Numbered from the stretch's first letter, positions 1,339-61,867 are shown. The stretch: DNA of 64,000 nt from an uncultured virus (IMG/VR IMGVR_UViG_3300037563_000115) (IMGVR_UViG_3300037563_000115); one strand, 5' to 3'. Translations and numbers: made by a program. The notes: a model not told the origin generated them from the letters alone.

Positions 1339-1572
1339 TTAACTCCTAGAATTTTCTTCGTCCAAATCTTTTCGTTTAAATTCATCTTTCGCTAACATAT
1401 TCTTCTTTACCTGCTCAATTCCCTTAGCATATTCAGCCAAATCATTTGCATATTTTTCCAATACCACTTTATCCTGTTTATCTATATGGAAAGTAGACCC
1501 CACATTATATAGAGCGTCTGCTATATACATTAGATATTTATGTGCTTCGTCAAGAGTTTGAATGGGTCTCAT
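1339..1572 (-). CDS. Hypothetical protein
   Basis: 77 aa ORF; start overlaps the upstream ORF; fills the terL-portal gap. Confidence 0.55.
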   Translation of the reverse strand: MRPIQTLDEAHKYLMYIADALYNVGSTFHIDKQDKVVLEKYANDLAEYAKGIEQVKKNMLAKDEFKRKDLDEENSRS

Positions 1573-1750
1573 AATATTCTGATAACCTTTCCAATGTAGC
1601 TAAATTATCCATTTTAAAATCCGTACAAACATGATAGACACCTAAGCATAAACTATCCCCATATTGACAAGGATGAGTTTTGCCAAGATTCCAATGAGAG
1701 GTTTTTGCATGGCCACATTTGCACCTTGGCTGAGGCTTGCGTCTTTTCAT
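1550..1750 (-). CDS. Cys/His finger microprotein, variant NLxYLE tag (DNLATLE)
   Basis: CKCGHAKTSH...C...C...CTDFKMDNLATLE. Confidence 0.7.
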   Translation of the reverse strand: MKRRKPQPRCKCGHAKTSHWNLGKTHPCQYGDSLCLGVYHVCTDFKMDNLATLERLSEYYETHSNS

Positions 1751-1964
1751 ATTTTCTCTAATACAAGTCTACCATAATAACTTGTTATTTCCAACCTGTA
1801 TTTATCCATTGTTATCTTCTACTCTAGTTTCCCATTAAGACAATAATTCAGACCATCTAAATAACTGTAAATTTCTTCAGTATGTAACCACTTAACATTC
1901 TTTTCAATTTTCTTAATGAATGCTTTAGTAATTTTAATCTCTTCTTTTAACTGTTTTTCGGAAA

Positions 1965-3614
1965 TCATGTTAATCTGTCCCGTAAGAATTTTCCAGCGTT
2001 CGGATCACCATTTTGACCTGGCATTGGAGTGTTGCTGCCACTGGTGTTGATCGGACCTGATATACCCATAGCAATGTTCCTCAAAGTAGTAGGAACCTTA
2101 CCTGCATATGATTTCTCTTGATCTGCACACCAAACAGCAAGTACATCAGCAGAAACATGGTCATCATGCCCTGCAGAAGCATCTACGAAAATTTTATCAT
2201 TGATACCTACTGAGGAACGATGCCTCTCCAAAAGCCCCCATTGGTCAAATCCCTCTTTAAAGAATTTATTTTTCTTAATTTTTTCTAAATTTGGGTATTG
2301 AACTCTTCCACTATCAAGTTCAAAAACGAATTGATCTACCATAGCGTTTTTGTAATTCTTCTTTGTAATAGGCTCAGTAGCTCCAAAAGTAACTCCTGCT
2401 ATTGGGATTCCTTCTTTTTTAAACATCTCAACAATACCAATGGCAATATTTGAATAATCAGCAAGACCCATGATACATTGGAATGTTCCCTCAATGGGAT
2501 GAATCAAATCTCTAATTTCCTGCATTTGAGTAACTACGTCACCCTGCCACATATACTTCGCTATAATGTCTTTGGTATTATCCTGATTTTTTCTTAAAAT
2601 TGTAAGAACAGTCCAGTCTAAATCTTTCTGCCCAGGCATTAAAGTTCCAGATGCTGTATCAAGACCAAAGTAATATTTCTCTGTCATTTCGGGACGGCCT
2701 TTTTCTAAAATACTAAAAAGACCAGAGGCAAGTTTTTTTTGCTGATCCCCTGATAGAACGAGGTTAATATCCTCCATCCATATCATAGCATATTGAGTAT
2801 TCCATTCAATTTCAGAATACCCTTCTACGGAGTCATAATGGAGAGAAGGATCATTTGGAAAAAGTTTCTCTTTTACACTCTTTGGCATCAAGTCTACAAT
2901 ACGTTTGGGATAGTCTTTCCCCTCATAACGAATTGATCCCTGCAGCCAATAAATATCACACTCTTCCCAAGACTTCTTTAAAACTTTATAGCGGGTGCCG
3001 TTATCATTACAACTATGCCAAAAATTATTTTTATAAAGAGAAATCCCAATCTTAATAGTTTTAGCCACACTAAAACTACCAAGCATTGGGACTAATTTTT
3101 CCTTTACTACGAAATCACTAGTTCGATGCGCCTCATCAAGAACTAGCACATGAAAGTGCTCAGACTCCTGTGTAGCTGTTGGAGAAGCTGACAATGCCTT
3201 TATAGTTGATCCATTTTTAAATTGAATAAACGAATTAGAAGTATGATTCCAATCTATCTGATCATGCACCTTAGAGGAAGGAGAAAGAATGCGACCAATA
3301 ATATCTTCTTTAACTAAACGTTTTGAAGTATCTGCTTTAGGTCCAAATACACCTACACGAAAGCCTGGATTATCTAGACACATTTTAACAATGGCAATAG
3401 CTACAGAATATGTTTTACCAGAACCACGACTTGCAAGGATACCAATATAAGGCAAACTTAAATCACATACGGAATCTAGAATTTGCACCTGATTGTCATA
3501 TAAATCAATGCCCAAGTTAAGCAATGCCCAATAACTAGGATTCATTGCAGCTTGGATTATATTAGCTATCCTTGCAGATAAATCAGTTTGTATCATTCCA
3601 TCGAAACGAGACAT
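1965..3614 (-). CDS. terL: Terminase large subunit
   Basis: Walker A ASRGSGKT, Walker B VLVLDEAH, RNase H-like nuclease motifs FGLDTA, DWTVLTI and GHDDHVSAD; 549 aa, next to the portal-like gene. Confidence 0.92.
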   Translation of the reverse strand: MSRFDGMIQTDLSARIANIIQAAMNPSYWALLNLGIDLYDNQVQILDSVCDLSLPYIGILASRGSGKTYSVAIAIVKMCLDNPGFRVGVFGPKADTSKRLVKEDIIGRILSPSSKVHDQIDWNHTSNSFIQFKNGSTIKALSASPTATQESEHFHVLVLDEAHRTSDFVVKEKLVPMLGSFSVAKTIKIGISLYKNNFWHSCNDNGTRYKVLKKSWEECDIYWLQGSIRYEGKDYPKRIVDLMPKSVKEKLFPNDPSLHYDSVEGYSEIEWNTQYAMIWMEDINLVLSGDQQKKLASGLFSILEKGRPEMTEKYYFGLDTASGTLMPGQKDLDWTVLTILRKNQDNTKDIIAKYMWQGDVVTQMQEIRDLIHPIEGTFQCIMGLADYSNIAIGIVEMFKKEGIPIAGVTFGATEPITKKNYKNAMVDQFVFELDSGRVQYPNLEKIKKNKFFKEGFDQWGLLERHRSSVGINDKIFVDASAGHDDHVSADVLAVWCADQEKSYAGKVPTTLRNIAMGISGPINTSGSNTPMPGQNGDPNAGKFLRDRLT

Positions 3615-3624
3615 TTCTTATCCT

Positions 3625-3807: not shown

Positions 3808-3978
3808 TATTACCCCTTATTTGTCAGACCATTTAGAATATATAAAATTTATTTTTCACTCGATACAAGTTTTAGATCACGACAAGAAGAGCAACGAAAA
3901 AGTTTCCAAAAAGCGATAAGAGAAGATTCTTTCCCCATCAAAAAGGAATAGATCTCTCCGTAATTATGGCTACATTTT

Positions 3979-10994: not shown

Positions 10995-13900
10995 CTAATC
11001 GGGATTAGTGGCTTCTAAAGAATCCGACATCGGAAGGCTTTCATAGAACACGATTGAATAATCAGGCATCCCTGGTGGATAGTTCCTATCCGCAGGATTC
11101 TGGAGCTGGTCTAGCAAACAAACAGAAGGGGTGATATCCTTGGCCCAGGGGGTATTTTGACCTGTATTAGTAGCTGCATCCCAATAACCTCCATCGTAGT
11201 CGCGTTCTGAATGGTCTACATAAGGCTCCTCATCCACATTATCATGATGCTGCTCATTAAAGAATTGTTCACCTTGTTCATCTGTATAAGTACTTGAATA
11301 TGAACCTGCTTGCTTTTTTAATGAAGAAGACCTTGGTATTTTCCCTTGTTTTACCTCTTGCTGTCTTTCCAAAGCATCATTAATAGAAAGAGGACTTGGT
11401 GTAAAGTATAAACAATAAGGAGATTCTTCACTATATTCTATATCAAGTCCTAATGCTGCAATCATATCCTGGTGGATATATGTATAAGCATCCCACACAA
11501 AGAGATCACCTGTATGAGGATCAATAAGTCCTCTAAACATATGCCCACCCCTTAATTTACGAGAGGAATTTGCCAGTTCATTCCAGGATGGATTAACAAA
11601 AACTTTAATACCTTCAACATCTTCAATTGATGCTTGCTTAGCCATTACTGGCTGCTTCAATGATCTTATTATAGCTTTATTAATTCCATATTTAATTGCA
11701 TCTTCATAAGAAACATTGGCCGATCCTGTTCCATATTTGTCATCTACAATAATGACTCCTGCTGTGTGTCCTGCTATAAAATCATCAACACTTGAAGGCA
11801 CACTATGCATATCATCTAATTGAATATACATTGACCCAAGCATTCTAATACGTATCCAACCTTTCCCAAAAGCTTCATGAGAAGTTAAATGATATTTATT
11901 AAATATCCACTCATCATGCTCCATCATAGAGGGTACTTCGAATAACTTACCTTCAGGAGAAATCCAATATCCTTCCCAAGAGGCAGTAATGTCTCGTGTT
12001 AAAGAATTAATAGCTGCTTCTCTATTCTTAAACATATTCTCTAACGCTTCAATAGCTTCTCCAGATGTGCTGCTCCATTCACCCTTGGGCTTACCCATAA
12101 ATCTACGTGGTGCTCCTCCAGGAGAATTCTGATCTAGATTGTCCTCATTAGACTCAGGAGAATAAGTTACAGATGTTGGTTTACTTGGCTCTCCATCTTG
12201 CGTCAAAGAATCCCATGTTGTGTTATGAGGAAAATCATGCTTCTTAGGATCATAAAATCCCTTCTGATATTCTATCAATGGTTCTTCACCCATTTCTTTA
12301 GATTCAGCTTCTTCCATTTCAGGATCATAAGCACTATCAACAGTCATCTCATCCTTCTTGCTTAGGGGCTTCGAGAACATGGAAATGAACTGTCTCCAAA
12401 CTTCAGGTGAACGATATTTTCCATCTGTACATGGTTCATATTCTGTAGTATCGTCACTAACACTATCTGGATTCAAAGCTATTTCCTTATCCGATTCTGG
12501 TGTCCAATGATTATCTGGTGCATTAAATAATGATGGAAGAAATTCAGCTTTCTTCATCATACCTTTAGAATATTCTTCCCTATCAAATGAAATATCATTG
12601 TCATTTAAATCCTCTACAATAACCATTTCAGGTTTGTATTTCCAAACAAATTGTTCTGCTGATTGTGGAATATTATTGAGATCCTGAATTAATAGATCAA
12701 GCTCAGTAGGTAGTACTCCTGACACTCTTACCCATCCTTTAGATAGTAACCAGGCAATCAAATTATCATCTTCTGGAGATCCTTCTGCAGGTAGAGTAAG
12801 TCCATATTCTTGTTTAAGCAAATTAGCTTCATCGACTATCCATGCTGTATGAGATCTTGTGGCACTGTATTCCTTTCCATCAGGGGCAAGCCAACAATCC
12901 ATATTACCACGATAGGCTGCTTCTTTCTTATTACCCAATTCAATTGTAGATTTATCCCCTTCAACAGGACTAAATACTGCACTATTAATTGTAATCTCTT
13001 TCCCTACAAACTCTTTATTTCCATAAAGATCCTTGCATGTTCCTTTCTTAATATAGGAAATCGTGATATGGGGATGATATTCATCTGAAGGAAGCCCTGT
13101 AGCACACTTAAGCTCTTTAGTAATCTTCTCATTCATATCAGATAAATCCTTGCTCTCTACTGAAACAGTGAGAACGTCAAACTCTCGCCCCTCTGGAGAA
13201 AAATGTTTCACTTCTCCAAGAGTTGCTTTAAATTGTTTCATTCCTTCAAACAGTTTCTCTACTTCTTTTGGGTTGTCTGAAATAATTCCATACTTAATAG
13301 TGATATGGCTATCAAGCTCTCTGCCTAGTAAGCCGTCCTTCATATAGATATCTTCATCTTTGACGTTACGAACGCCCCATTCGACAATCTCTTGCGAAAT
13401 CTCTTTAGGAATATTAGCCATAATACAAGCATACTCAATCATTGGACTCTTTTGTTCTGCTGTAATCTCTTTCTTTGAGAAAGCTTTCGAAGCCATAACA
13501 GGCTGCTGCCTTCTAGCCTGATTAACAGCTAATTGAACAGAGTTAACTGGCCATTCAATTTGAACATGATTTTGCCAACTGGTATCTTCTTCAATTGTAA
13601 TCTTAGCTCCTTCAGGAACAAACTGAGCAAGAAGATTATCTACCGATTGAGGAATATAATTTAAATCCTTAAGTGTTACCCCCCACTCAGATCCACCACT
13701 AGAATCCCCAATACGAATCCATCCTTCCGCTATGAGATTATTAGAATTTAAAGGCATATCAAATAGACCTGTACTCTTGGCAGGTTTAGGTTTAAATCCA
13801 TACTCGTTAACCAACATATCTATATTTGCTCTAACCCAATCACTGTGAGTATTAAGATCTCCTCGATTCATATCTTCAGAAGTAACACCTTCACCTCTTA

Positions 13901-16900
13901 CTTGAAAGATCTTACCTTTTGGGTCTATCCAATAAGCATGAGCATAAGCTGCTTCTTTCTTGAGAGAAGCTTCCATTTCTAAGGCAACTACATTATTCTG
14001 GGAAATAGTTCCTCTAGGTGAGTTTGTATCAACATCAAATCCACGGTAATGTAACTCCTGTGCAACTTCTGCATGGGTACTTCGATAAGCATCCCAAACA
14101 TAGGTAACACCATTATACCCATCTAAATAGCGTAATTCATTATATTGAGATTTTTGAATTAGCTTTGATTCTTCATCTTCTGTTGGATCAATTAAAACTG
14201 GGAATTCACCACGGCTATATGTTGTAGAAATTTCTACAACATCTGCTTTCTTATCTAAAATAGCCCGTTTATATAAACCAGAAATATCCTGTGAAGGCTG
14301 CTTATCTCCTGCACGAGGTTCTTTACCAATAACAGGAATATTCTTATCTACAAGAGTTTGTAATCCCACTGTAGGTACACCATTATCTGCGTTAGTCATT
14401 GGGTAAATATTATATAAATCCAATCCAACAGTATGCTTAGCATTCCATTGTGTTCCAATGAATAAAGCATAAGGTTCTTTACGTCCTAAAGTTTTAGGAT
14501 CAATAACAGGAAGATCAAAAGAACTACGTCTAGATAGCATCTTCTCTTGCTGTAAGGCCCTATTGATAGCTTCCTGACCATCAGCTACCAATTCCTCAAC
14601 TGAAAGTTCAACAACTCGTCTCTGTAAATCTTCTATTTGGAAATATTTATCCTTACCCCAATTGGCAACGAAGTCAATCAGAGTAGATGGGATATTACTT
14701 AAATTACCTATCTCGATGCCAGTGCCTATAGATTTTCGTCCTGCGGCAAACAAATCTCCGACCCTGAGCCAACCATCCTCAAGAAGTTGATTAAGAAGAT
14801 TACCAGTCTTAATATCCCACCAATCCTGACCTAGCTCATCCTGTCCATATTGATATTGAGTACGAAGTAAGTCTTCCTGTTCAAAGAACCAATCTTCGTG
14901 AGTAGTTTTAACAGGGTATACCTTGCCATTAGGGTCAACCCAATATGCTGCTTGGGCACGATCATATGCTACAATACGCAAAGAAGCTGTCTTATCAGAT
15001 TTCTCAACCTGTTTTAATACATTTTTCCAAGAATCAAAGTGAATAGCCTTGTCATCAATGAAATATTTAGAGAATGGCTTTTCCCCCTCAAAAATAGAAT
15101 CATAAGGAATTTCATGCTTATCAAGCCATTCACGAACAAGCTCAAGTCCTTCTTCTGAGTCTGCTCTACAGGAGTATATGACAACGTTATAACCCATCTC
15201 CTGCAATTTAGCTAATGACTCCTTAGCTCCTTCTATAGGATCACCAATGGCGGGGAAAGTGGCATCCTGTGCGATTGTTTTGTCTAAATCGATACAGATA
15301 TCAGTTTCAGCTTCTTTAGGCTCTTCAAAGGCTTCTTTTAGGAAAGCTTGCTTTAATGAAGATACTGGTTGTAATCGCTTCTGTTGAAGTGCCTTATTAA
15401 TAGCCTTTCGCAATCCTAAAGATAAATCTTCCTCCGACAAAACAACATCACGCCCAAGGTCCTCAACTCTTACCATAGTTGGTTGTTCTTTTAGAATAAT
15501 ATCTTCGATAATATTTGGAATATCCATCATATCATAGCAATCAACTATAAATTCATTAAAGTCATCTGATATTCGAACCCAACCATTCCTAAGCATTTGA
15601 TCCCATAAATCTTCATTACGTTCAACACCACTAGCATCGTTAACTCCACTTTCAATACCATATTGTTTTAAAATATCTGAATGGGATTGAATCCATCCCA
15701 TATGGCTACCTTCAACAGGAAATACTTTAGAATTGGGAGCAACCCAAACTATATTCTCGGCACGAGCTACAACATGTAATGAAGCTTTCTTTGGTGTAAC
15801 CCACCAGATCTGACTATTATCAAATACAAATCCATTATAGGTTCCATCACCCTGTGAAAGGAGTGCTCCATCATATCCCTGGGACTTAAGCTGCACTAAC
15901 AGAAGATTCTCATACTCTTTCCAACCAGCAGGATTCTTCATAGAGACATAGAAATCTTTAACCATCCCATGACCTGCAGCACCTGTCTCACCACGATCAA
16001 TAGAACCTCTATCGGTAGTGAACCAGAAGATACCTTGGGTTGTTTTCTTAGGATTTACTTTCTTAAAATTTACATTAGTCTCATGATGACAAAGCAAGGG
16101 TTTACCATTGCTATCTACTACTTTAGATCCATTGAACCAAGAATCAAAATCTAATGAAGCTGTTTGAAGTCTTTTATGGGATAAAGCTTTATTTACTGCT
16201 TTTTGAACACCCTGTTCAATAACATCTTTCCTCAATACGTTAATATAATTCCTATTCAAATCTTCAATAAAAATACTTTTGTCATTCAATTTTAAAATAA
16301 AATCAGTAATAAAATCAGGTATATTCTGCAGGGACTCTAGATGAATAGAAGCTTTATCACCATATTTACATGCTCTTATCCAACCCTTTTTGATAGCATC
16401 ATCAATATTACCTATCCCCACATTTTGTTGAATCCATTCAGTATGATTATGGGTAGGTAATTCAACTGAGTAAAATTTCCCATTAGGATCAAACCACCAT
16501 TGCCCCGATGGGCCTAAAGAGCCCTCACTAATAATCTTCTCAATCAATGGAAGTTCAGTAGTAGTAACTTCCCCACCAGTTTGTTCGAGGAGTTTCTTTA
16601 ATTGAGACAATATACCAAAGAACCCATATCGCTGCAAATACTTAAAAGTAAGTTCATTATCTGAAGTAGCGTCTTGTTTGAGGTGCCTTTCATCAACTAA
16701 ATCCTGTTTAATTTTAAGATCTTTAATAATTTCTTCTTCAATATTGTTAAGTTTTGTTTCTATCTTATTATAAAATAGTTGTTGTTTCTCTTTATCCCAA
16801 GCCTTAATGACAGTCTCCAATTCATCTACACGCTGAATATCCCTCTTTATAGTTCCCAAGCTGCTATCTAGCTCTTCTGCAAGGGCCTCAGCAGCCTCTA

Positions 16901-32248: not shown

Positions 32249-32301
32249 AATTAAAAATGTATACGATCTCTATATATACTGCATTTTATTATACTTTATT
32301 G
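32249..32301 (-). repeat. Conserved about 50-bp intergenic element, copy 2
   Basis: aattaaaaatgtatacgatctctatatatac-N7-tattatactttattg; matches 10918-10968. Confidence 0.7.
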
Positions 32302-32592
32302 AGTCTTTTGATTCTTATCTACCTGTTGTTCATACATGTATTCTAAATACTCCAACTTAGGTAGGGATTTATATAAAACCACATAGCACAAACCATCTCC
32401 TAAATAGCCATCCCATAAATAATCAAATATAATAGGCTCTCCAATTAGAATATGGCCATGCTTATTTAAATTAGCAAAAAAGAGATCTAAACCTTCTCTA
32501 ATTGAATTCACTGTTCCAATGTACCAAATAGCTTGGCCAGGGGAAAGGGGAGTAAGCCAAGAACGATCAGGATCAAAATCTTGTATATTCAT
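32296..32592 (-). CDS. Hypothetical protein with variant tag (KLEYLEYMYE)
   Basis: C-terminal LEYLEYMYE. Confidence 0.6.
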   Translation of the reverse strand: MNIQDFDPDRSWLTPLSPGQAIWYIGTVNSIREGLDLFFANLNKHGHILIGEPIIFDYLWDGYLGDGLCYVVLYKSLPKLEYLEYMYEQQVDKNQKTQ

Positions 32593-33218
32593 TAAATTTT
32601 AAACTTAGCTAAATTCTTTATGGGCTTATTAACTATTGGAAGTACTTCTTGGCACAAACCTTTAGCTAAACTTTCTTCTGGGAAGAAATACCGATTCAGC
32701 CCAGTTGAGAGAAGATCGAACCACTCCTTCTCACTAATCTTTGTACGGGAACTATAAAACTTACTCCATCTAGAAAAATATAATTTATGAAGATCTGCTT
32801 CTTGATTAATCTGAGGGAGGGTCAAAGATCCCATACTTGTTGATCCAGCATGGCACATTAAAACTGTATTGGGATAAACTATTCTGTAAGAACCGCTGAT
32901 GAATATGTCAAACGCTGCCGACATTGCTTTACCCATAGCAACAGTAATAACTGGAGCCTTAGAAGTCAAAATTGCGTCACATACCATCTGCCCATCCTCT
33001 ACAGATCCTCCGGGACTGTTAATTAAAAGTTTAATTGGCTTAATACTCTTCTGTGATAAAGTTGTAAGAGGCAATACAATTCGTTCAATCACACTCTTAT
33101 CCACGTCACCATTAAAAAGGATCACCCTATCTTTAAGTAAAGCTTTATAAGATTCAATCTCAAATTCAGCAAACGGATCAAAAGGTGGTGTATCACCATC
33201 ATCTTTTCGCAGTGTCAT
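32592..33218 (-). CDS. clpP: ClpP-like serine protease (divergent)
   Basis: DRVILFNG, LLINSPGGSV, GKAMSAA (Ser), LMCHAG (His). Confidence 0.85.
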   Translation of the reverse strand: MTLRKDDGDTPPFDPFAEFEIESYKALLKDRVILFNGDVDKSVIERIVLPLTTLSQKSIKPIKLLINSPGGSVEDGQMVCDAILTSKAPVITVAMGKAMSAAFDIFISGSYRIVYPNTVLMCHAGSTSMGSLTLPQINQEADLHKLYFSRWSKFYSSRTKISEKEWFDLLSTGLNRYFFPEESLAKGLCQEVLPIVNKPIKNLAKFKI

Positions 33219-33384
33219 ATTGACTCCTTTTTTCTACACACCATTCTAAATATTCTAAATTGTCTGAAGGAATGTATTCACCACAAAAATTGCAGGAAAA
33301 GCATCTTCCATAATTTTGGCCACAATCTCTATGCCATCCCCTATTATCGTCACAATTTCTACATCGACTATTATAATTTATCAA
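33199..33384 (-). CDS. Cys/His finger microprotein with NLxYLE tag
   Basis: CRNC...H...CFSCNFCGEYIPSDNLEYLE. Confidence 0.8.
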   Translation of the reverse strand: MINYNSRCRNCDDNRGWHRDCGQNYGRCFSCNFCGEYIPSDNLEYLEWCVEKRSQYDTAKR

Positions 33385-35005: not shown

Positions 35006-35008
35006 TTC

Positions 35009-35242
35009 TTACTCCTTATCAAGTTCTTCTTTATATTCTAAATATTCGAGATTGTCAATTACTCCATTTAGATGTACAAAATCTAAATAAACTCTAATGT
35101 ACTGTTTAGTAAATTTACCTGTATGAAACTCTTTAATCTTTTGCTTTAGAATATATTTAGAAAAGGATTCTCTTTCTTCTTTTTCATACTCAACTTCTTC
35201 ACCACAATTCTTATCGCCTTGACTAGGATAAGTTGCACTCAT
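35009..35242 (-). CDS. Hypothetical protein with NLxYLE tag (no finger)
   Basis: IDNLEYLEY. Confidence 0.7.
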   Translation of the reverse strand: MSATYPSQGDKNCGEEVEYEKEERESFSKYILKQKIKEFHTGKFTKQYIRVYLDFVHLNGVIDNLEYLEYKEELDKE

Positions 35243-36939: not shown

Positions 36940-37419
36940 TTATTTCTCCTTAGTTTTATTTTCTTTCTTCTCATAAGCATCTTCAACTATTTCTAAATTG
37001 TCTTTGTCTTCATCCTTTGCACACTTATAACATGAGGTATAGAGCCATCCTCCTCCACGTAGCTTCCCTTCTTTACCACAAGTCTCACATGTTTCTGCTG
37101 ATAGCCTTTCAGCTTCATCCGATATTGCATACATTTCATCTGTGGCACTCGCCCAATAAATAGATAGTGTACCATATTTCTCTTTCACTTGACTAAATCT
37201 TGGAATCCAATCCTCATTATAATCTTTCTCATTCTTGTGTTCTTCAATCCATTTTTGAATGAGAGGTTCAAGTTTTTCACAAGCTTCTTTTATAATCTTA
37301 TACCATCCTCGGTTACAGGAGAGACCCCAGCACATGCAGGTCTCTTGCATACTCTTTCCATAATCTCCAAAGCACAATGGAAATTTCTTAACTAAATATT
37401 TTTCTAAATCTCGTCTCAT
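36940..37419 (-). CDS. Conserved phage protein (QVKEKYGTL type) with variant tag DNLEIVE
   Basis: GWYKII...QVKEKYGTLSIY...TCETCG...GWLYTSC. Confidence 0.65.
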   Translation of the reverse strand: MRRDLEKYLVKKFPLCFGDYGKSMQETCMCWGLSCNRGWYKIIKEACEKLEPLIQKWIEEHKNEKDYNEDWIPRFSQVKEKYGTLSIYWASATDEMYAISDEAERLSAETCETCGKEGKLRGGGWLYTSCYKCAKDEDKDNLEIVEDAYEKKENKTKEK

Positions 37420-42971: not shown

Positions 42972-43139
42972 TCACACATTTAATTTATCCTTTTTATTTA
43001 AACACCATTCTAAATACTCAAGGTTATTCATCCTCTCATACCACTTACATTTACACTTTAGCAAAAAGTGAGCATTAACCCAATCATCACGATGTTGGTC
43101 TGGAGTATGCTCACAATACCTGCAAGGTCTTACAAACAT
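42972..43139 (-). CDS. Cys/His finger microprotein with NLxYLE tag (55 aa, below cutoff)
   Basis: MFVRPCRYCEHTPDQHRDDWVNAHFLLKCKCKWYERMNNLEYLEWCLNKKDKLNV. Confidence 0.8.
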   Translation of the reverse strand: MFVRPCRYCEHTPDQHRDDWVNAHFLLKCKCKWYERMNNLEYLEWCLNKKDKLNV

Positions 43140-43500: not shown

Positions 43501-43619
43501 GTTATTCTCCTTGGTTACGATCAAGCCATCTAGCGAATTTAGCAATTGCCCAAACAGCAGCAGCATACAATAAAATTCCTACAAGAACCAATCCAGTGAT
43601 TTCTAAGCTATTCATTGCA

Positions 43620-43797
43620 TCCTCCAAATTGGGGCTTGAACTATCTTTGAACGTTTGGCTCAAAGAGCAGGTTCGACCCGCTGCATCTTCCCCTAATTGT
43701 GGGGCTGTTCTCGAATCTTTTACTTCAAATTGTGAGGAGTTTTTATTGAACTATCCCGCTGGATATTTATCTCCTCTAAACACATTGCGGGTCTCAT
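43620..43797 (-). ncRNA. Candidate structured leader/ncRNA
   Basis: GC-richer tract after promoter 43803-43831 with GACCCGC/GCGGGUC, GAGGAG/CUCCUC, UAUCC/GGAUA, CCCC/GGGG and CUUUGAGC/GUUCAAAG stems. Confidence 0.4.
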
Positions 43798-43802
43798 ATT
43801 TA

Positions 43803-43831
43803 ATTATAACACATTTACTACTTTTTTGCAA
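43803..43831 (-). promoter_or_regulatory. Sigma70-type promoter
   Basis: TTGCAA-N17-TATAAT with extended TG. Confidence 0.65.
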
Positions 43832-43905
43832 TAGCTATTTTTCGTCTGAGACTCTATACTTATTTACTATGATAGCTATCTACTACCAGGAATTAATTTT
43901 AATAC

Positions 43906-44556
43906 TTATTCCTTAGCCGATCCATCCCAATAGCCGCTTCTACCATCAGCGTCTGAAGGGTAAATAACCTTATCAATAAGTCCATACTTCTGAGCTTCAT
44001 CAGCTGATAAGTAAAAGTTGCGTTCACAATCACGCAAGACATCTTCGTACTTCTTCCCACAGTTATCTGCTAGGATCTTAGTGAGAGATTCTTTATAGAA
44101 CTGCATCTCTTTAGCCTCAATCACAATGTCTGTAGCCTGACCACTGATACCACCACCGCTGATCAAGGGCTGGTGAATCATGATACGAGCGTTAGGCAAG
44201 GCAAAGCGTTTGCCCCTAGCTCCTGCACTAAGCAGCACTGCTCCAAAACTCATAGCCATTCCATAGCAAATAGTTGAAATTGGACTATTGATATGATTCA
44301 TGGCATCAAGGATAGCAAGACCTGCAGAGACTTCTCCACCTGGGGAGTTAATATATAAATTAATATTCTTTCCAGGATCAATCGAATCTAAGTATAGAAG
44401 CTGTGCAACTAATACGTTAGCATCATCCAAGCTAATAGCTCCATGATTACCACCTACGAATAGAATCCTATCCTGCATAAGACGAGACAGCAGATCATAA
44501 CTGACCATGCTCCCCGCCCCCTGGGTTTTTTCTATGACTGTTGGAATTATGTTCAT
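43906..44556 (-). CDS. clpP: ClpP protease proteolytic subunit (host-like)
   Basis: IIPTVIE, YDLLSRLMQDRILF, AQLLYL, YINSPGGEVSAGLAILD, AMSFGA, ARIMIHQP; start set at ATG 44556 after GGGAG. Confidence 0.95.
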   Translation of the reverse strand: MNIIPTVIEKTQGAGSMVSYDLLSRLMQDRILFVGGNHGAISLDDANVLVAQLLYLDSIDPGKNINLYINSPGGEVSAGLAILDAMNHINSPISTICYGMAMSFGAVLLSAGARGKRFALPNARIMIHQPLISGGGISGQATDIVIEAKEMQFYKESLTKILADNCGKKYEDVLRDCERNFYLSADEAQKYGLIDKVIYPSDADGRSGYWDGSAKE

Positions 44557-44622
44557 TGTTATTATCTCCCTTATTTTATTTAGTGAACCAGCTAGTAACT
44601 CTATTGTGAAGTATCTTATATA

Positions 44623-44650
44623 AGTGTAACACAAATTCGTCAAAAGTCAA
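44623..44650 (-). promoter_or_regulatory. Sigma70-type promoter upstream of clpP
   Basis: TTGACT-N16-TACACT with extended TG. Confidence 0.55.
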
Positions 44651-45002: not shown

Positions 45003-45165
45003 ACCGTTGCTCCAAGTATTTTAAGTTATCCAGCACAAATTTATTGCAATGCTTCCTGCAATTAGGATCTACCAGTCCGTAAGACCAACACATCGGGTTA
45101 TGAACACCTTCAGGATGTCCACAAGTCCTATATGAATCTTTCTTGAATCCCGTTGGCTTACTCAT
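44977..45165 (-). CDS. Cys/His finger microprotein with NLxYLE tag
   Basis: TCGHPEGVH...CNKFVLDNLKYLE. Confidence 0.8.
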   Translation of the reverse strand: MSKPTGFKKDSYRTCGHPEGVHNPMCWSYGLVDPNCRKHCNKFVLDNLKYLEQRYEESRKKR

Positions 45166-46894: not shown

Positions 46895-47083
46895 TTATCC
46901 ATTTTTAAGTTCCTCTCTTTTCTCAATCAATTCTAAATATTTAAGATTGTCTGGCTTATAAGTATGGAAAGATATTTTATGGATTCCACTATGACAAGCT
47001 TGACAAGCATCCCATATTCTTGAACTACTTATTGTATGAAAAGCCATTCCGTGACCACATTTACAAGGAAATTCTTTATTCAT
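46895..47083 (-). CDS. Cys/His finger microprotein with NLxYLE tag
   Basis: MNKEFPCKCGHGMAFH...CQAC...HTYKPDNLKYLE; start moved to 47083. Confidence 0.8.
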   Translation of the reverse strand: MNKEFPCKCGHGMAFHTISSSRIWDACQACHSGIHKISFHTYKPDNLKYLELIEKREELKNG

Positions 47084-47331
47084 AGTGATTGACACTCTCT
47101 TACCCAAGGGAATACATCTTCAATTTCTGCTCCTGCTTTAATCTTCTTAAGTCCTTCAAGATTCTCTAAGTATTTAAGATTTTCTCCTCTGCTCTTAAAG
47201 CCAAGCTCTGTAATACGTTCTAAGGTAGTTATGAACTCATCTCTATCATCTGTCACAATATATCTTTTCTTAGGGGGTTTAGGGCCATTTAAAATCTCGG
47301 TCAAAGTATCTATATCCCAACCTATTGCCAT
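47080..47331 (-). CDS. Hypothetical protein with NLxYLE tag (no finger)
   Basis: GENLKYLEN. Confidence 0.65.
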   Translation of the reverse strand: MAIGWDIDTLTEILNGPKPPKKRYIVTDDRDEFITTLERITELGFKSRGENLKYLENLEGLKKIKAGAEIEDVFPWVRECQSL

Positions 47332-49397: not shown

Positions 49398-49586
49398 TCA
49401 TTCATTGCATTTCATCTCCAAGTACTCCAGATTATCAAGAGGCTCATATCCATCACAATGACATTCAGGATTTGCAAGTGTTCCATCAAAATTAAGCAAC
49501 CACCCAGAATTACACTGTGAACCATCAGCATCATCTAAATGAATGCCCTTAACATGATAACAATGTCGGCATCTATCTACTTTCAT
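49398..49586 (-). CDS. Cys/His finger microprotein with NLxYLE tag
   Basis: CRHCYHVKGIH...CHCDGYEPLDNLEYLE. Confidence 0.8.
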   Translation of the reverse strand: MKVDRCRHCYHVKGIHLDDADGSQCNSGWLLNFDGTLANPECHCDGYEPLDNLEYLEMKCNE

Positions 49587-49773
49587 TTAATTGCTCCAGG
49601 TAACGAAGGTTATCTGCTTTATACCCTAAACAAAATGAATTATCAATACATCCCTCACAGTAACAACCAACAACCATTCTTACACTTTCCCCAGTCCAAC
49701 TATGCATAGTCTGATAAACATCAATGTGGCTAATCTTGTTATGACCACAAGTACAAGGGAAATCTATTTGCAT
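49573..49773 (-). CDS. Cys/His finger microprotein with NLxYLE tag
   Basis: FPCTCGHNKISH...CLGYKADNLRYLE. Confidence 0.8.
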   Translation of the reverse strand: MQIDFPCTCGHNKISHIDVYQTMHSWTGESVRMVVGCYCEGCIDNSFCLGYKADNLRYLEQLNESR

Positions 49774-50165: not shown

Positions 50166-50242
50166 TTAGGTTCATTATTTAACTCCTGTCAATAAATAAT
50201 GTATCCAATTAGCTAATCTGTCAATCCAGCATAATTTGCTAT

Positions 50243-50389
50243 TCATCCTATCTCTTCTCCTTCAAAATGATCTTTATATTCTCGGCACAGACAACCTTCT
50301 GGATATTCACATATCTTCTTACCTGGAGCACAGGGGCATTCTCCCGTATGCACTTCATAAGGATGCTTGCAGCGTCTGCAGTCTTTCAT
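50243..50389 (-). CDS. Cys/His finger microprotein (48 aa, no tag)
   Basis: MKDCRRCKHPYEVHTGECPC...CLCREYKDHFEGEEIG. Confidence 0.6.
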   Translation of the reverse strand: MKDCRRCKHPYEVHTGECPCAPGKKICEYPEGCLCREYKDHFEGEEIG

Positions 50390-50640
50390 TAGAATTGATC
50401 CCCCCAATCTATTAAATCCATCTCATCATCTTCATAATCCAACTCATCTCGTAAATTTGACCAACTCACTTTAATTGGAGATGGATTCTTCCCACCTCTC
50501 TTAGTATATTTACAATCAGGCCATTCGGAGCAGCCAAGGAAAGTATTTGTTGTCTTGCTATTTATTCGTTCAACTAGATAGCCATCAGTGCAATCTGGAC
50601 ACCCTTCTCCTGTATTTTTATTGGCATTGTTTAGCTTCAT
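50389..50640 (-). CDS. Topoisomerase-type C4 Zn-ribbon protein
   Basis: CPDCTDGYLVER...FLGCSEWPDCKYT. Confidence 0.75.
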   Translation of the reverse strand: MKLNNANKNTGEGCPDCTDGYLVERINSKTTNTFLGCSEWPDCKYTKRGGKNPSPIKVSWSNLRDELDYEDDEMDLIDWGDQF

Positions 50641-50821
50641 ATTGCTGCTCCAAATAAACTAAGTTACTCTTTTTATATTCTTGACATCCCTTAACAGCCC
50701 TAATTGGATTACACGCACAGCAGTTACCCCAAACAGTAGCTCCATTTCTTCCTACCCACCAATGTTCTGAAGCTTCATGTCCACATTCACAAGGAAAAAA
50801 GAAAATGTTATCTTGTTCCAT
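50618..50821 (-). CDS. Cys/His finger microprotein with NLxYLE tag
   Basis: FPCECGHEASEH...CQEYKKSNLVYLE. Confidence 0.8.
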   Translation of the reverse strand: MEQDNIFFFPCECGHEASEHWWVGRNGATVWGNCCACNPIRAVKGCQEYKKSNLVYLEQQYEAKQCQ

Positions 50822-55084: not shown

Positions 55085-55666
55085 TTACCCATTACTAGTT
55101 ACCTCCATAATCAGTGCTTTAGCTTCCTTCAGCGATATATGACTTTGCTTGATCCAATCATAGATGAGCTTAATAGGATCTTGTGCAGCCTTCAGCTTCT
55201 GTTGTCTATCTGTCAGCTGTTCCTTTTCAATAGACTTCTGCTCCAGCATCTCTAAATTAGTTTGCTTTTTATCAGCGTCTTCAGAAGCCTGGAGTGCCCG
55301 TAAGATTGCTTTCTTATAATCCCTGGAGCTGAATATTTCATAATCTACATCCCATTTGGATGCCTTACGGCCCCAGCCCATCTCACGTTCAAAGTCTGGT
55401 TCCATCGGGAAGATCTCACCCTGCCTGAAGAGGGGCCTCTCAAGGACAAGCATCCCAGCTGTTCCCCCCAGCTTCTTAATACCATTCTTATCTACAATCT
55501 CTGCATCCGTTATCATCAAATCTGACACCTCATCATAGAGATTACCATCCTCAGTATCAGAGGCACGAGTAATGACACACCATTTGAATCTTCCATCCTT
55601 CACATGGCAGCGATTACATTTAAACTTCTTATCATATGAGGGATCTCCACACTTCTTACACGCCAT
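55085..55666 (-). CDS. Hypothetical protein with internal variant tag TNLEMLE
   Basis: N-terminal CKKC..CNRC; GGAG RBS. Confidence 0.6.
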   Translation of the reverse strand: MACKKCGDPSYDKKFKCNRCHVKDGRFKWCVITRASDTEDGNLYDEVSDLMITDAEIVDKNGIKKLGGTAGMLVLERPLFRQGEIFPMEPDFEREMGWGRKASKWDVDYEIFSSRDYKKAILRALQASEDADKKQTNLEMLEQKSIEKEQLTDRQQKLKAAQDPIKLIYDWIKQSHISLKEAKALIMEVTSNG

Positions 55667-56770: not shown

Positions 56771-57970
56771 TTATGACTCTATAATCCTCACACTATCAGC
56801 TTCTACAGGATGAATATATTCCAAAGCTTTGTAGAAACGTTCTACAACTGTTTCAGGAACTTTCTTCTCTCTGTTTGCATTTCTTTCTAACAAAGTCTTT
56901 AAAGGGAGATCCCAAAAAATAGCGGAACACAAAGCCCCATGCTCTCTAGCAATTCTAAATAGTATTTTACGCAATTTAAAAGTAGGATTTGTACAATCCA
57001 CTATACAACTCTGTCTATTTTTCATAGCTTCTCTAAGTGTATGTTCTTGCCAACCAAATATTTCATTATTTCTAGACTGATCATTTATATCACCGCATAA
57101 CTTTTTTCTTTGGTCATCCATTGATATAACCTTAGCTTGGGGATACTGTTTCTCTAATTGATTTCTAACCGTAGTTTTTCCGCTTGCAGGAGCCCCAATT
57201 AGCAAAAGTATTTGAAAGGGGGGAATAGGCTTCCCCATAATTTCTTTAGCTTCGTCTAGTGTTTCAATTGTTTCAGGAGCATCTTCAACTAAAATATTCC
57301 ACCTAGCCAAAGAATAAGAAGCATTATCAAGATGGGTAGCTAGAGGTATTCTGTAATTCTTATTCCAGCATCCTGAATCAAGGCAATTTTGACGAAAAAG
57401 TTCCAAGGCAAACATCCCCGTTCTCATATCTGCTGCCTTACGACCTAATGTATCAGCTTGAGAGAGAAGATAAAGAAGTTTGGTATTCACAACTAATGAG
57501 AGCATCTTGAGTTTATTTATTGTAATTCCATCTGTGACATTCTTTCGGGCATCCATATGATATCTTATCAAATTCAATATTTGAAGTCTCATTGGATATT
57601 TAAACTCTGGAAAGTATTTAAATAAAAATTCTTTAGCTAACCACACACCATCTTTTTCATGCCCGTAAGCAGTGACAGTACCTTTTTTAGGATGGATTGA
57701 ATAGGTTGCTGGCTTGCCAATATCGTGAAGAATTGCACTTAAATATAGAGCAATTTGATTTTCCTTCTTTTCAATATGTTCTGCTTCCATAAGTTGTAGA
57801 ACTACACTAGAGGCCATTTGGCTATGCACAAGAACGCTGCCCTCTAGATGGTGAGGAGGGCTCTGCTGGCAATCAGCCATTAATTTGAACTCAGGTATCT
57901 CTTCTACATACTGAAAAAGATCTACTGGCTGTAAAGCAATTACCTTATCATGGAACTCTTGCAGACTCAT
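56771..57970 (-). CDS. HD-domain plus P-loop kinase (polynucleotide kinase-like RNA repair protein)
   Basis: HHLEGSVLVHS, LHDIGK, YGHE, RYHM, ADTLGR; GAPASGKT, IVDCTN, LLERNANR. Confidence 0.85.
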   Translation of the reverse strand: MSLQEFHDKVIALQPVDLFQYVEEIPEFKLMADCQQSPPHHLEGSVLVHSQMASSVVLQLMEAEHIEKKENQIALYLSAILHDIGKPATYSIHPKKGTVTAYGHEKDGVWLAKEFLFKYFPEFKYPMRLQILNLIRYHMDARKNVTDGITINKLKMLSLVVNTKLLYLLSQADTLGRKAADMRTGMFALELFRQNCLDSGCWNKNYRIPLATHLDNASYSLARWNILVEDAPETIETLDEAKEIMGKPIPPFQILLLIGAPASGKTTVRNQLEKQYPQAKVISMDDQRKKLCGDINDQSRNNEIFGWQEHTLREAMKNRQSCIVDCTNPTFKLRKILFRIAREHGALCSAIFWDLPLKTLLERNANREKKVPETVVERFYKALEYIHPVEADSVRIIES

Positions 57971-59932: not shown

Positions 59933-61063
59933 TCATATTTTAGTCCTTCCATCTACATGCTCTATCTCACCTAACACTTTAAACATCTGTTTCCTATCTA
60001 CTTGCTTTCCATCTAACAAGCTAAATAGAAACCCCTTTAAATGAGCTGGAACATTTTTTATGACCCACGCTGCATACTCTTTCCTGGGTCCCTCTTTAGG
60101 AGCTTTCTCAAACCAAGTATAGCATTCTTTTTCTAATTGTGCAACCCTTTTCTGAAAATAAGTAATTTTATCTAATACTTCTCGGCGATACTCTTCTGGA
60201 GCTAAAGTAGCCAAATTAGGTGCTGTACCATCAGATACAGCTTCTAAGATGTTCCTATCGCTTAAATGGCTTATAAAGCGGTGGGCGGCCAAATAAGCAC
60301 TACCCTTGACCTTGACCATTATATCCGCTGGAAACCTTAAAACGAACCCTTCATCGAGGACTGGCAGACCCTTGGCAGTCTCAATAAGCTGATCTAATGA
60401 ACTAAATGAATAAGTCTTAAATGTAGGCATTTTAAGCTTCTCAGCCATTATAGCCAATTCATGGAACGAGGCCAATTTATTAGAAACATGATGTTTATAC
60501 CCGATAGGGTATAATCCTTCAGGATAACCCTTTTTAGCGTAGTCAATAACGATCTGAAAGCGTTTTGTAACTAATTCAAACATAAGTGTACCCTTTAGGG
60601 TATAATCTCGCAATAGCTCTTCCTGCTCAAAAGTAAGAGGTAACTCATTAGCATACTTTCCATGCTCCGAATCAAAGGAACCTTTAGTAGTGAAAGTAAC
60701 TGTATCCGTATTGGGGTCAAGGAAGGTAATAATTAGGGACCCGTCAAGCTTCTCACTTGTCTGAAACTCACCAAGAGAAACAAGATTATCATAAGAGGTT
60801 TCAGGCATCTGTCCAAGATTAAAGAACTTATCAAAAGGATAAGCAAGGACCTTTCTATTCTTCATATCCAGGATAAGTCCACGAGACATACGAGCAAAAG
60901 TATTCCAAGTATTATCCCAGGTGCAAGAGTCCTGATAGTGAAGCATTACGACATTTGGAAATCTAACAGATTCAATCACATAGACAGAATTAGTTTGAGC
61001 ATGTTCCTTAAGCCCAGCTAAGTCCCATAATTTATTGCTCGTGATATACTGCTCTGGTGTCAC
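59933..61063 (-). CDS. RNA ligase, T4 Rnl1-like
   Basis: SRGLIL..PFDKFFN, EKLDGSL (motif I), TKGSF, LMFEL, EGFVL, VKVK..YL. Confidence 0.9.
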   Translation of the reverse strand: MTPEQYITSNKLWDLAGLKEHAQTNSVYVIESVRFPNVVMLHYQDSCTWDNTWNTFARMSRGLILDMKNRKVLAYPFDKFFNLGQMPETSYDNLVSLGEFQTSEKLDGSLIITFLDPNTDTVTFTTKGSFDSEHGKYANELPLTFEQEELLRDYTLKGTLMFELVTKRFQIVIDYAKKGYPEGLYPIGYKHHVSNKLASFHELAIMAEKLKMPTFKTYSFSSLDQLIETAKGLPVLDEGFVLRFPADIMVKVKGSAYLAAHRFISHLSDRNILEAVSDGTAPNLATLAPEEYRREVLDKITYFQKRVAQLEKECYTWFEKAPKEGPRKEYAAWVIKNVPAHLKGFLFSLLDGKQVDRKQMFKVLGEIEHVDGRTKI

Positions 61064-61377
61064 TTGTTATTCACCCAATACTTAACTTCTAATGCTGTCT
61101 TTTTCTTATGATCAGGAATAGTTAATGGCTGAATATTTTTATAATTAACTGCCTTAAGAAATTGTTTCCTATTAGTTAAATCAAATTTCCACAAGGAAAC
61201 TACATGGTCAAGTTGCCAATATTTCCCATAATTATTCCAAGTCATTCCTCCATAGAACTTTTTCTCGATGTATCTCTTAAAATATTTGATAGAACATCTC
61301 CCAAATTTATTTCGTCCTTTAGGGAGAAAAGTATCATGCCCTCTTTTACAAAATTGTTTTTTCCACCCTTTAGCCAT
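61060..61377 (-). pseudogene. Internally deleted HNH endonuclease
   Basis: [11 protein letters not shown]...GRC joined directly to SIKYFKRYIE...MTWNNYG..WQLDHV..NIQPL; the central part seen in the window's other HNH genes is absent. Confidence 0.55.
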
Positions 61378-61867
61378 GTTTCTTTTCCTTTTTCAGTAAT
61401 TCTTTTTTATCATAAATTAATTGCAAATAATCGACATTATTTATTGTCTCAAGCTGAATTGAGCACGTCACTCTTCCTTTTCGTACAACTCGATCCTGAA
61501 TCCTTTTGATTAAATATGGGCAACGATATGTACCAACCTGGATAATAATTGGATAATCAATCCATTCAAGACCCGTCAATTTGAAAAATGTTGATCTTTT
61601 CTTAAGCAGCATATCAGTAAACTCAGCTCGAACATTCCTAAGTTTTAGCCATTTCTTAAGCTTAGGAGCACTTTCCTCAAATGCTTTCGCCGTGGTCTTC
61701 TCACCTGTCACAGCATTAATGATTCCAACAGTCACTTTGTTAGGTTGCCATTTTTTATTATAAACATATACTCGTCTTTTAGTTTTATGCCTTCCCAATT
61801 GAGACCAAAAGCTTTGTTGATTGGTAGCAAGCCTTACAAATGTTTTCTGAATTCGATTGAGGCTCAT
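61370..61867 (-). CDS. Basic hypothetical protein with weak variant tag NNVDYLQ
   Basis: 165 aa, ATGA overlap. Confidence 0.55.
   Translation of the reverse strand: MSLNRIQKTFVRLATNQQSFWSQLGRHKTKRRVYVYNKKWQPNKVTVGIINAVTGEKTTAKAFEESAPKLKKWLKLRNVRAEFTDMLLKKRSTFFKLTGLEWIDYPIIIQVGTYRCPYLIKRIQDRVVRKGRVTCSIQLETINNVDYLQLIYDKKELLKKEKKHG

Follow-up and report, generated by a model that had tools for sequence, protein, structure and literature searches.

We analyzed a 64-kilobase (kb) stretch of DNA (hereafter, the window) from the uncultured virus IMGVR_UViG_3300037563_000115, in which many small genes encode, at or near their C-terminus, the peptide N-L-x-[YF]-L-E (the tag). The window is 36.6% G+C, all of its plausible genes are on the minus strand, and 137 tiled open reading frames (ORFs) cover 98% of it. 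Its source is a contractile-tailed phage of roughly 190 kb from peat and permafrost soils, and the region with the arrays of tagged genes occurs in the peat and permafrost metagenomes of 20 studies. We collected relatives with the terminase as the query. The best match of the window terminase among phage records is Bacillus phage G (28% identical), and its relatives in IMG/VR are 41–100% identical. The nearest record (G001) is a 25-kb fragment of the structural end. G002 is complete (192 kb, with direct terminal repeats), G003 (180 kb) is 94% complete, G004 (193 kb) has a terminase that is 48% identical, and G005 and G006 are fragments of 120 and 70 kb.

N-L-x-[YF]-L-E matches 33 times in the three minus-strand (coding) frames of the window and never in the three plus-strand frames, which is exactly the count of the original prediction, a first reading of the sequence. 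All 33 matches are inside ORFs of 52–109 amino acids (aa), and the motif ends 3–27 residues ahead of the stop codon. Eight ORFs of under 60 aa that had been named as missing from the ORF track are all present, each with the motif. This is far above background: when residues were shuffled within each protein (2000 shuffles), there were on average 0.05 matches and at most 2, and an estimate from composition gives 0.046. The 33 copies use mixed codons, as had also been stated: five codons for the first Leu, all six for the second Leu, AAT (23) and AAC (10) for Asn, TAT (22) and TAC (10) for Tyr, and GAA (21) and GAG (12) for Glu. Thus, the constraint is on the peptide, and this codon diversity rules out a DNA repeat as the origin of the motif. 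We also set aside a role as a nascent peptide or in translational coupling, because the tag lies anywhere from 0 to 27 residues before the stop and is sometimes internal.

The carriers had been described as about 40 unrelated genes, but about 30 of the 36 ORFs that match a model of the tag belong to one diverged family of paralogs, with Cys/His ligands conserved at both ends. The pattern of the family is C-x-C-G-H-x4-H...C-x2-C...C-x2-[FY]-x2-D-N-L-x-Y-L-E. When 30 carriers are aligned, the features that are far from the tag are the N-terminal C-x-C-G-H-x4-H and the central C-x2-C; the last C (or H)-x2-[FY]-x2-3-D immediately precedes N-L-x-Y-L-E; and the stretch between the ligand pairs is hypervariable and rich in insertions and deletions. 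In an alignment of 141 sequences that includes database relatives, C12, C14, H21, N57, and L58 are invariant, and H16, C33, D56, Y60, L61, and E62 are at least 90% conserved. Most bodies contain 4–6 Cys and 2–4 His, which is compatible with two metal sites, and family members ("fingers") presumably bind zinc. The tag of most copies is the family's own C-terminal helix, inherited by descent.

To tell tag and body apart we used two independent hidden Markov models (HMMs) built from 175 sequences: an 18-position model of the tag, with a cut of 8 bits (top scores on the non-coding strands were 3.0–6.9 bits, and 3.0 in the window), and a 52-position model of the body that ends before the tag, with a cut of 10 bits. 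The tag model found 36 ORFs in the window, 53 in G002, and 46 in G003, and the body model matched 26, 30, and 25 of these, respectively. Tagged genes are thus 26% of the ORFs of the window (36 of 139) and 16% of those of the complete genome G002 (53 of 324). Many of the remaining tagged ORFs have 5–7 Cys and resemble a second subtype (C-x2-C..., P-[MS]-[DT]-NLEYLE-[WY]). In the window, four more ORFs are family members: the Cys-rich 33199, 33994, and 50808 and a degenerate copy, 34419 (ORFs are named by their first coordinate). The finger-type ORFs of the window, with their scores, are:

1550..1750, minus: finger and tag (NLATLE variant), just downstream of the terminase; body 22.4, tag 21.3 bits
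18323..18544, minus: finger and tag (modelled, alignment A2); body 43.3, tag 30.8 bits
18522..18689, minus: finger and tag; body 14.8, tag 27.1 bits
19028..19225, minus: finger and tag; body 36.3, tag 19.1 bits
31994..32242, minus: finger and tag (NLVFLE); body 20.8, tag 16.6 bits; partly covered by an RNA-library contig
33199..33384, minus: Cys-rich second subtype (CxxC..., P-S-D-NLEYLE-W) and tag; 6 Cys, body 7.6, tag 27.8 bits
33371..33529, minus: finger and tag; body 19.9, tag 20.8 bits
33994..34269, minus: Cys-rich second subtype and tag; 6 Cys, body 6.6, tag 19.0 bits
34256..34441, minus: finger and tag; body 22.7, tag 20.5 bits
34419..34589, minus: degenerate finger (2 Cys, 3 His) and tag; body 3.7, tag 27.6 bits
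35239..35424, minus: finger and tag; body 11.8, tag 28.2 bits
38035..38241, minus: finger and tag; body 30.3, tag 19.8 bits
38524..38685, minus: finger and tag (first row of alignment A1); body 19.2, tag 24.3 bits
38682..38849, minus: finger and tag; body 28.3, tag 23.2 bits
38846..39025, minus: finger and tag; body 30.4, tag 16.0 bits
39003..39194, minus: finger and tag; body 30.8, tag 18.8 bits
39178..39363, minus: finger and tag; body 27.7, tag 26.3 bits
39739..39999, minus: finger and tag; body 16.7, tag 18.4 bits
40258..40443, minus: finger and tag; body 10.1, tag 19.8 bits
40421..40612, minus: finger and tag; body 24.2, tag 30.4 bits
40615..40809, minus: finger and tag; body 26.9, tag 31.3 bits
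41533..41781, minus: possible diverged finger with an internal NLLWIE, then a zinc ribbon; tag 6.0 bits (above the non-coding maximum of 3.0 in the window and below the 8-bit cut)
42972..43139, minus: finger and tag; body 15.2, tag 19.8 bits
44977..45165, minus: finger and tag; body 16.9, tag 30.1 bits; covered by an RNA-library contig
46895..47107, minus: finger and tag; body 37.9, tag 21.0 bits
49398..49586, minus: finger and tag; body 19.8, tag 21.3 bits; covered by an RNA-library contig
49573..49773, minus: finger and tag; body 37.6, tag 26.6 bits
50618..50821, minus: finger and tag; body 41.3, tag 23.7 bits
50808..51059, minus: Cys-rich second subtype and tag (SLEYLE); 6 Cys, body 8.5, tag 20.9 bits
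54047..54265, minus: finger and tag; body 37.6, tag 31.4 bits
54584..54781, minus: finger and tag; body 39.5, tag 21.8 bits

The family is restricted to one phage clade. Matches to the family profile number 52 in G002, 42 in G003, 65 in the fragment G005, and 29 in the fragment G006, but there are none in G004, and none of the six frames of G004 contains the strict motif. We also searched viral and cellular sequence with a degenerate DNA pattern for the consensus form, F-K-x-D-N-L-K-Y-L-E. This pattern found 17 stretches on 11 viral contigs, and in 596 gigabases of bacterial and archaeal genomes it found two matches (in Cytobacillus and Mangrovimonas). We judge both of these to be chance, as they lack a finger body and do not coincide with a tagged ORF read in frame. 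Only the consensus form is covered by this pattern, so rarer forms in prophages would escape it.

Judged by sequence searches, this is a new, very large, virus-specific family of small putative zinc-finger proteins, absent from Pfam, PHROGs, and the PDB. When 138 window proteins were scanned against Pfam, no tagged ORF matched any family at E ≤ 0.01, and the zinc-finger and zinc-ribbon families (including Ogr_Delta, SWIM, RING, zf-CDGSH, and DUF1660) did not claim any of them. At E ≤ 1, no Pfam family matched more than 3 of the 141 members, and the best E value for the commonest family was 0.043. Among 39 tagged or variant ORFs, 37 had no match in PHROGs and two had weak matches (E = 0.0045 and 0.0071) to families of unknown function. 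A profile search of the sequences in the PDB found only chance look-alike helices (CutA, GNLKYLEWL, E = 0.57; the CH domain of Bim1, E = 1.1; and a leucine-rich-repeat repebody). We rejected a leucine-rich repeat because there is one copy of the motif per domain, the repebody match (TNLTYLE, E = 5.8) is to the motif only, and no such repeat is among the listed Pfam matches. A profile search of 1.84 billion representative sequences gave 1,414 clusters (at 50% identity) with E ≤ 0.001, nearly all of 55–75 aa; of the top 150 clusters, 144 have the strict tag and 148 have the N-terminal knuckle. A word-indexed search found 281 relatives, which are metagenomic and have no Pfam domain, and the 120 listed names are "hypothetical protein" except for one evident mislabel. 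The clusters of fingers in the ESM Atlas are likewise labelled "hypothetical protein" and are mostly from Uroviricota. As to the statement that no such phage system has been described, a full-text literature search that did not extend to subscription journals or supplements found no account of the motif or the family, and the peptide strings of the tag matched only unrelated text.

Over the 135 carriers in the window, G002, and G003, the tag has D just before it in 94 and then N in 128, L in 135, a variable position (E in 63, K in 34, R in 12), Y in 114 or F in 11, L in 131, and E in 134. The similarity continues beyond the motif, with Y or W at +6 (50), L or K at +7, Y at +8 (66), E or D at +9, and K or R at +11 (77), so that the consensus is about 13 residues, D-N-L-x-Y-L-E-[YW]-[LK]-Y-[ED]-x-[KR]. 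The proposal that the tag is helical agrees with AlphaFold2 models of two members, in both of which it is the only predicted helix and begins at the Asn of the tag. In the 53-aa member 38524, this helix is at residues 41–50 (predicted local distance difference test score, or pLDDT, of 65). In the 73-aa member 18323, it is at residues 57–70 (pLDDT 75.6, predicted template modelling score 0.54; the blocks of the core and the helix, residue blocks 51–70, are at about 85). The start, D-N-L-E, reads as a helix N-cap, and the predicted helix reads as amphipathic.

The predicted fold has no close counterpart among solved folds: no Foldseek match to the 18323 model was better than E = 3.1, and we leave the fold unassigned. 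RING, U-box, and RBR domains appear in weak Foldseek rows (RNF216 and TRAF6, best E = 3.1, from a query model with pLDDT 75.6). The best hit of a wide structural alignment, also weak, was the U-box of LubX (Z = 2.2, root-mean-square deviation 6.0 over 53 residues). The SWIM signature is C-x-C-xn-C-x-H. The family has an invariant N-terminal C-x-C and a predicted helix after its last ligand, its G-H-x4-H and central C-x2-C differ from this signature, and the listed Pfam results include no match to a SWIM profile.

The tag and the finger can each occur without the other. Finger bodies without the tag are present in all three genomes (31676 and 23656 in the window; 18750, 53092, 29845, and 18146 in G002), and several of these stop directly after the last ligand. 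Also, the best match in G002 of the tagged finger 44977 has no tag, but its body is still 57% identical. In the other direction, six carriers in the window are Cys-poor (32296, 35009, 39357, 44727, 47080, and 48749). The three genomes together encode 18 proteins of this kind, which fall into 12 groups that are not linked by BLAST, and none of them matches a finger body once the tag is removed. So the claim that the tag also sits on unrelated bodies holds for these proteins. The other ORFs of the window that bear on the tag are:

32296..32592, minus: Cys-poor 98-aa body with KLEYLE, immediately downstream of the divergent ClpP; tag 11.0 bits, no body HMM match
35009..35242, minus: Cys-poor 77-aa body with tag; tag 17.0 bits, no body HMM match
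36940..37419, minus: protein of another type (159 aa, 9 Cys) whose tag has decayed to NLEIVE; tag −0.1 bits
39357..39761, minus: Cys-free 134-aa body with GLEYLE; tag 8.8 bits
44727..45002, minus: Cys-poor 91-aa body with tag; tag 17.2 bits, no body HMM match
47080..47331, minus: Cys-free 83-aa body, tag 27 aa before the C-terminus; tag 10.7 bits
48749..48928, minus: Cys-free 59-aa body with tag; tag 10.8 bits
48925..49254, minus: 109-aa ORF with a strict NLFYLE; tag 2.4 bits, no ortholog in G002 or G003
55085..55666, minus: 193-aa ORF, NLEMLE 51 aa before the C-terminus; tag 4.3 bits
31676..31837, minus: finger body without tag (G002_53092 is a similar tagless finger); body 18.3 bits
61370..61867, minus: ORF with NVDYLQ, outside the feature; no tag HMM match
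32592..33218, minus: divergent ClpP paralog within the array; Pfam CLP_protease 1.3e-25
43906..44643, minus: canonical ClpP; Pfam CLP_protease 3.6e-65

The original prediction listed eight variants of the motif, and these fared unevenly. NLATLE (1550), KLEYLE (32296), GLEYLE (39357), and SLEYLE (50808) score at least 8 bits with the tag model. NLEIVE (36940) scores −0.1 bits, yet the ortholog in G003 reads DNLEYLE (in that copy, which is 52% identical, the segment is DNLEYLENEYDKK; the G002 copy has GNLGIVEK). NLLWIE (41533) is plausibly a diverged internal copy of the tag, and NLEMLE (55085) is uncertain. We reject NVDYLQ (61370) as a tag, since its orthologs read NIDYLG and NIDYLS. It is also uncertain whether NLFYLE of 48925 is a true tag, despite its match to the strict pattern. 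As had been noted, the recognisable enzymes lack the tag: no window protein with a confident Pfam assignment carries it, and the largest tagged ORFs across the window, G002, and G003 are of 157–234 aa.

Orthologs of the Cys-poor carriers retain the tag even though their bodies are only 40–56% identical. For example, KLEYLEY is retained in the ortholog of 32296 (G002_51844, 53% identical); the orthologs of 35009 have NNLEYLEF (G002_48257) and DNLTYLEH (G003_162571); the ortholog of 47080 (G002_33045) has DNLRYLEH at the same internal position; and G003_4887, which aligns with the C-terminal half of 48749, reads TNLEYLEG. Among database homologs of 44727, which are 38–100% identical, all 21 have the strict tag, and it lies within the most conserved block of the family. 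(The body of 44727 in the ESM Atlas gives weak STAS-like and MinC_N-like leads, with a template modelling score of about 0.55; the model itself has a pLDDT of 0.56.)

The tag is sometimes internal: in the 47080 family 27 residues follow it, it lies between the domains of the tandem fusions P0002 and P0003, and it occurs twice in P0014. Therefore it acts as a surface element rather than as a free chain end. P0002 (114 aa) and P0003 (117 aa) are each finger, tag, finger, and tag, and P0014 (159 aa) is a finger, a tag, an unrelated body, and a second tag. These three proteins are either real fusions or read-through of adjacent genes in the arrays, and they could show the route by which the tag reaches new bodies. 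Conservative replacements within the tag are nearly absent (L in 135 of 135 copies and E in 134 of 135). Overall, the tag behaves as a separable, portable, and strongly frozen module.

We propose that the family consists of variable heads, each joined to the same invariant helix, through which all of them would dock to one partner, and we put the probability of this at about one half. The phage has massively expanded one family of Cys/His proteins of about 55–75 aa, with ligands at both ends, a hypervariable middle, and a terminal helix. The helix would be a docking handle for a single invariant surface common to all of the carriers, and the hypervariable, indel-rich stretch between the ligand pairs would be the head. 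At least ten unrelated small Cys-poor bodies in the three genomes have gained the helix and retain it. Docking and the single partner are the steps that we infer rather than observe. If more than 50 proteins per genome share one surface, then the contact residues cannot drift on either side. In contrast, a helix that packs against its own body could co-vary with that body and would not need five identical side chains on a dozen unrelated bodies, so a shared surface is the simplest explanation.

Several points weigh against this proposal. The evidence consists of sequence and predicted models; both models are of medium confidence (pLDDT 65 and 76), and zinc binding is read from Cys/His patterns only. 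When ORFs of the window are paired with their best hits in G002 or G003 (54 pairs), the five fixed residues of the tag are identical at 253 of 265 positions (95.5%) and the bodies at 999 of 2568 (38.9%), but BLAST seeds partly on the tag, so this contrast is inflated. Where the line between family and foreign bodies falls depends on the threshold, as many Cys-rich copies escape the body HMM. The constraint is also not uniform: among 59 database homologs of 39357, 36 have the strict tag and 11 have GLEYLE, most of the others are conservative variants or fragments, and there are several changes from L to M, V, or I. Finally, in fingers the spacing from the last ligand to the helix is fixed, so the helix could pack on the core and its conservation could be partly structural.

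This last point leads to an alternative that we consider unlikely: the helix would be the C-terminal structural element of the finger fold, with no shared partner, and the non-finger carriers would be chimeras from recombination or deletion within the dense tandem arrays that keep the helix for the stability or solubility of small proteins. Indeed, descent within the family accounts for the helix of about 30 of the window's 36 carriers, fusion products such as P0002, P0003, and P0014 are in the databases, and the content of the arrays varies among strains. The subtypes of the body and the tag also match, as vertical descent would predict (the variable residue is K or R in 30 of 54 CxC-H bodies and E or D in 37 of 63 other Cys-rich bodies). 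However, the tagless fingers in three genomes imply that the fold does not depend on the helix. Also, packing on at least 12 unrelated bodies should not preserve five residues, yet all 21 homologs of 44727 do preserve them, and the scarcity of replacements of L by I, V, or M or of E by D over 135 copies is unusual for a helix with a structural role only, in proteins whose bodies are 39% identical.

A second alternative is that the tags bind each other, so that homotypic or heterotypic oligomerisation builds mixed oligomers or some larger body. If each tag had to fit many others, its sequence would be held as fixed as by a common hub, hydrophobic residues are on more than one face of the predicted helix (L1, Y3, L4, Y/W6, L7, and Y8), and tandem two-domain proteins exist. 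Still, a helix of 13 residues is short for a stable coiled coil, and we think this rather improbable. A homodimer model of 18323 (alignment A2, with four zinc ions) scored 0.00 in both runs, but the fold of the chain itself was uncertain and there were no controls, so this score counts neither for nor against self-association.

The third alternative involves proteolysis. Both ClpP genes of the window sit within the arrays of tagged genes. The canonical ClpP (43906–44643) matches a solved ClpP at 1.4e-59 and retains the Ser and His motifs. The divergent ClpP (32592–33218) is flanked by tagged genes; it matches at E = 4.8e-14, with the Ser and His aligned and the position of the catalytic Asp opposite a non-acidic residue. 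The window, G002, and G003 all encode the divergent ClpP and the tag-free G004 lacks it, the canonical ClpP is present in the window and G002 and was not found in G003 or G004, and a Cdc48-like AAA ATPase is present in G002, G003, and G004 (the window does not extend to this gene). The co-occurrence of the divergent ClpP with the family is circumstantial evidence that it is the partner of the tag. We view it as a lead only, because the four genomes are related and provide just one phylogenetic contrast, and because the same pattern is common to 66 other proteins (67 untagged proteins of G002 have a homolog in G003 and none in G004).

The tag might, then, be a proteolysis address that sends the carrier, or a host protein bound to its head, to the phage Clp, or it might be a site for cleavage after the invariant Glu. 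We give this only a slim chance. The AAA ATPase of G002, which also encodes a trypsin-like peptidase, would fit, but G004 has the ATPase without any tags. Short addresses on unrelated proteins, such as ssrA-type degrons and the capsid targeting sequence of T4, are at the extreme N- or C-terminus. The tag is instead 0–27 residues from the C-terminus and is internal in the fusions and in the 47080 family, so a degron at the C-terminal end is unlikely; the original prediction had raised a degron or adaptor site for the ClpPs. Furthermore, the loops by which unfoldases dock to ClpP are [LIV]-G-[FL] tripeptides and not helices. A precedent for the general idea is Gp53 of phage SPO1, a small early protein that is reported to be adaptor-like and to redirect ClpCP (PMC6873191). 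Gp53, however, is one protein acting on the host's ClpC, whereas the tag is shared by a family of many copies.

A more specific version, which is slimmer still, is a repertoire for targeted proteolysis: each head would recognise its own host protein, such as a defence factor, and the helix would deliver this cargo to phage Clp machinery that would be centred on the divergent ClpP inside the arrays. F-box proteins and the PRANC adaptors of poxviruses have variable bodies and a short, conserved, helical C-terminal module that leads to one machine, and they are expanded in large viruses. Their modules are about 40–50 aa, bind Skp1, and act in ubiquitin ligation. The likeness to the tag is one of logic only, as the Pfam scans gave no match to an F-box profile. 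If this version is true, then the family would be the counterpart of these adaptors in a bacterial virus, with one handle and at least 50 interchangeable heads per genome.

It is highly unlikely that the tag is a signal for incorporation into the virion, by which a set of small proteins would enter the capsid and be injected along with the DNA: a few tagged genes (1550 in the window; 84663, 87430, and 87599 in G002) do adjoin genes for terminase, a possible portal (a 579-aa ORF with no Pfam match), and a trypsin-like peptidase, and T4 has short targeting peptides on unrelated packaged proteins, but 39 of the 53 tagged genes of G002 are in the small-gene region at 10–60 kb and none is in the tail module at 90–140 kb, and the T4 signal is N-terminal and cleaved off, whereas the tag is C-terminal in 135 of 135 carriers.

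We return to the proposal of variable heads on a shared docking helix and compare it with known systems. Phages do encode zinc-finger regulators, namely Ogr of P2, Delta of P4, and Com of Mu, which are single-copy proteins of about 60–70 aa with Cys ligands. However, neither Ogr/Delta nor any other Pfam zinc-finger model recurs among the 141 members. KRAB zinc-finger proteins are reported to be a very large family of paralogs in which a variable part is joined to a conserved module that docks to a universal cofactor, KAP1 (PMC3579818); this is the same logic as we infer here. KRAB proteins are eukaryotic DNA binders with multiple C2H2 fingers and an N-terminal KRAB domain of about 75 aa. The phage proteins have instead a single Cys/His domain of about 45 aa and a C-terminal helix of 13 residues, with no relation in sequence (no Pfam match). 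Haloferax encodes, in one genome, many zinc-finger micro-proteins of under 70 aa with C(P)XCG motifs (PMC10716476). Their genes are chromosomal and archaeal, each protein has a pair of C(P)XCG knuckles, and the abstract reports no shared C-terminal helix.

As for the genomic context, G002 is a contractile-tailed phage that encodes a family A polymerase, DnaB, a primase, RecA, and NusG-like and sigma-like proteins, as well as the two ClpPs, the Cdc48-like AAA ATPase, a deformylase, a methionine aminopeptidase, RNA-repair enzymes, and ice-binding-like fibre domains. In its region of tagged genes at 10–60 kb, the small ORFs are interspersed with genes for nucleotide metabolism and for RNA metabolism or RNA repair. 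Some peat and permafrost contigs skip or replace stretches of the arrays of the window (37909–38523 and 50187–50777), which suggests gain, loss, or replacement of tagged genes at the level of strains. A third such stretch, 32300–35269, has weak evidence: its joint has a side of 27 letters and comes from one low-depth contig. Two RNA libraries contain contigs whose sequence is identical to that of the window over 44977, 49398, and part of 31994, but these could be from carry-over of DNA, and lack of cover elsewhere is not informative. The largest gap in the arrays, 340 nucleotides at 43567–43905 without a tiled ORF, is just upstream of the canonical ClpP. RNA-library contigs cover 43403–43617 and 43705–43897, and tRNA and Rfam scans of the window, including this gap, found none.

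Other genes deserve mention. A 2138-aa protein (10995–17411; its counterpart in G002 is 2087 aa) has an ADP-ribosyltransferase domain of the "polyvalent protein" type (433–497) and a 2H phosphoesterase or Acb1-like domain (1368–1487). An RNA-repair set (41923–42300, 45158–46231, 56771–57970, and 59933–61063) comprises two RNA ligases of different families, an HD and AAA_33 kinase-like protein, and a cyclic-phosphate-processing receiver domain, and G002 adds Thg1, RlaP, and an HAD "Swiss Army Knife" RNA-repair domain. Enzymes of N-terminal processing, a peptide deformylase (37580–38038 in the window) and a methionine aminopeptidase (141381–142142 in G002), share the G002 genome with the two ClpPs. 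Ice-binding-like domains are in three large proteins of G002 (96237–97163, 130133–132292, and 135466–137571; L031, L033), two of them in the tail module, which is notable given that the phage was sampled from peat and permafrost.

If the tag is a shared handle, then these phages would use a modular form of host takeover that is undescribed for phages, with one connector and dozens of small, fast-evolving heads. On a more conservative reading, this is still a large, undescribed, virus-specific family of putative zinc-binding proteins that is worth a family model. Such a model would make thousands of small "hypothetical" ORFs in soil viromes recognisable, many of which are under 60 aa and are easily missed by gene callers.

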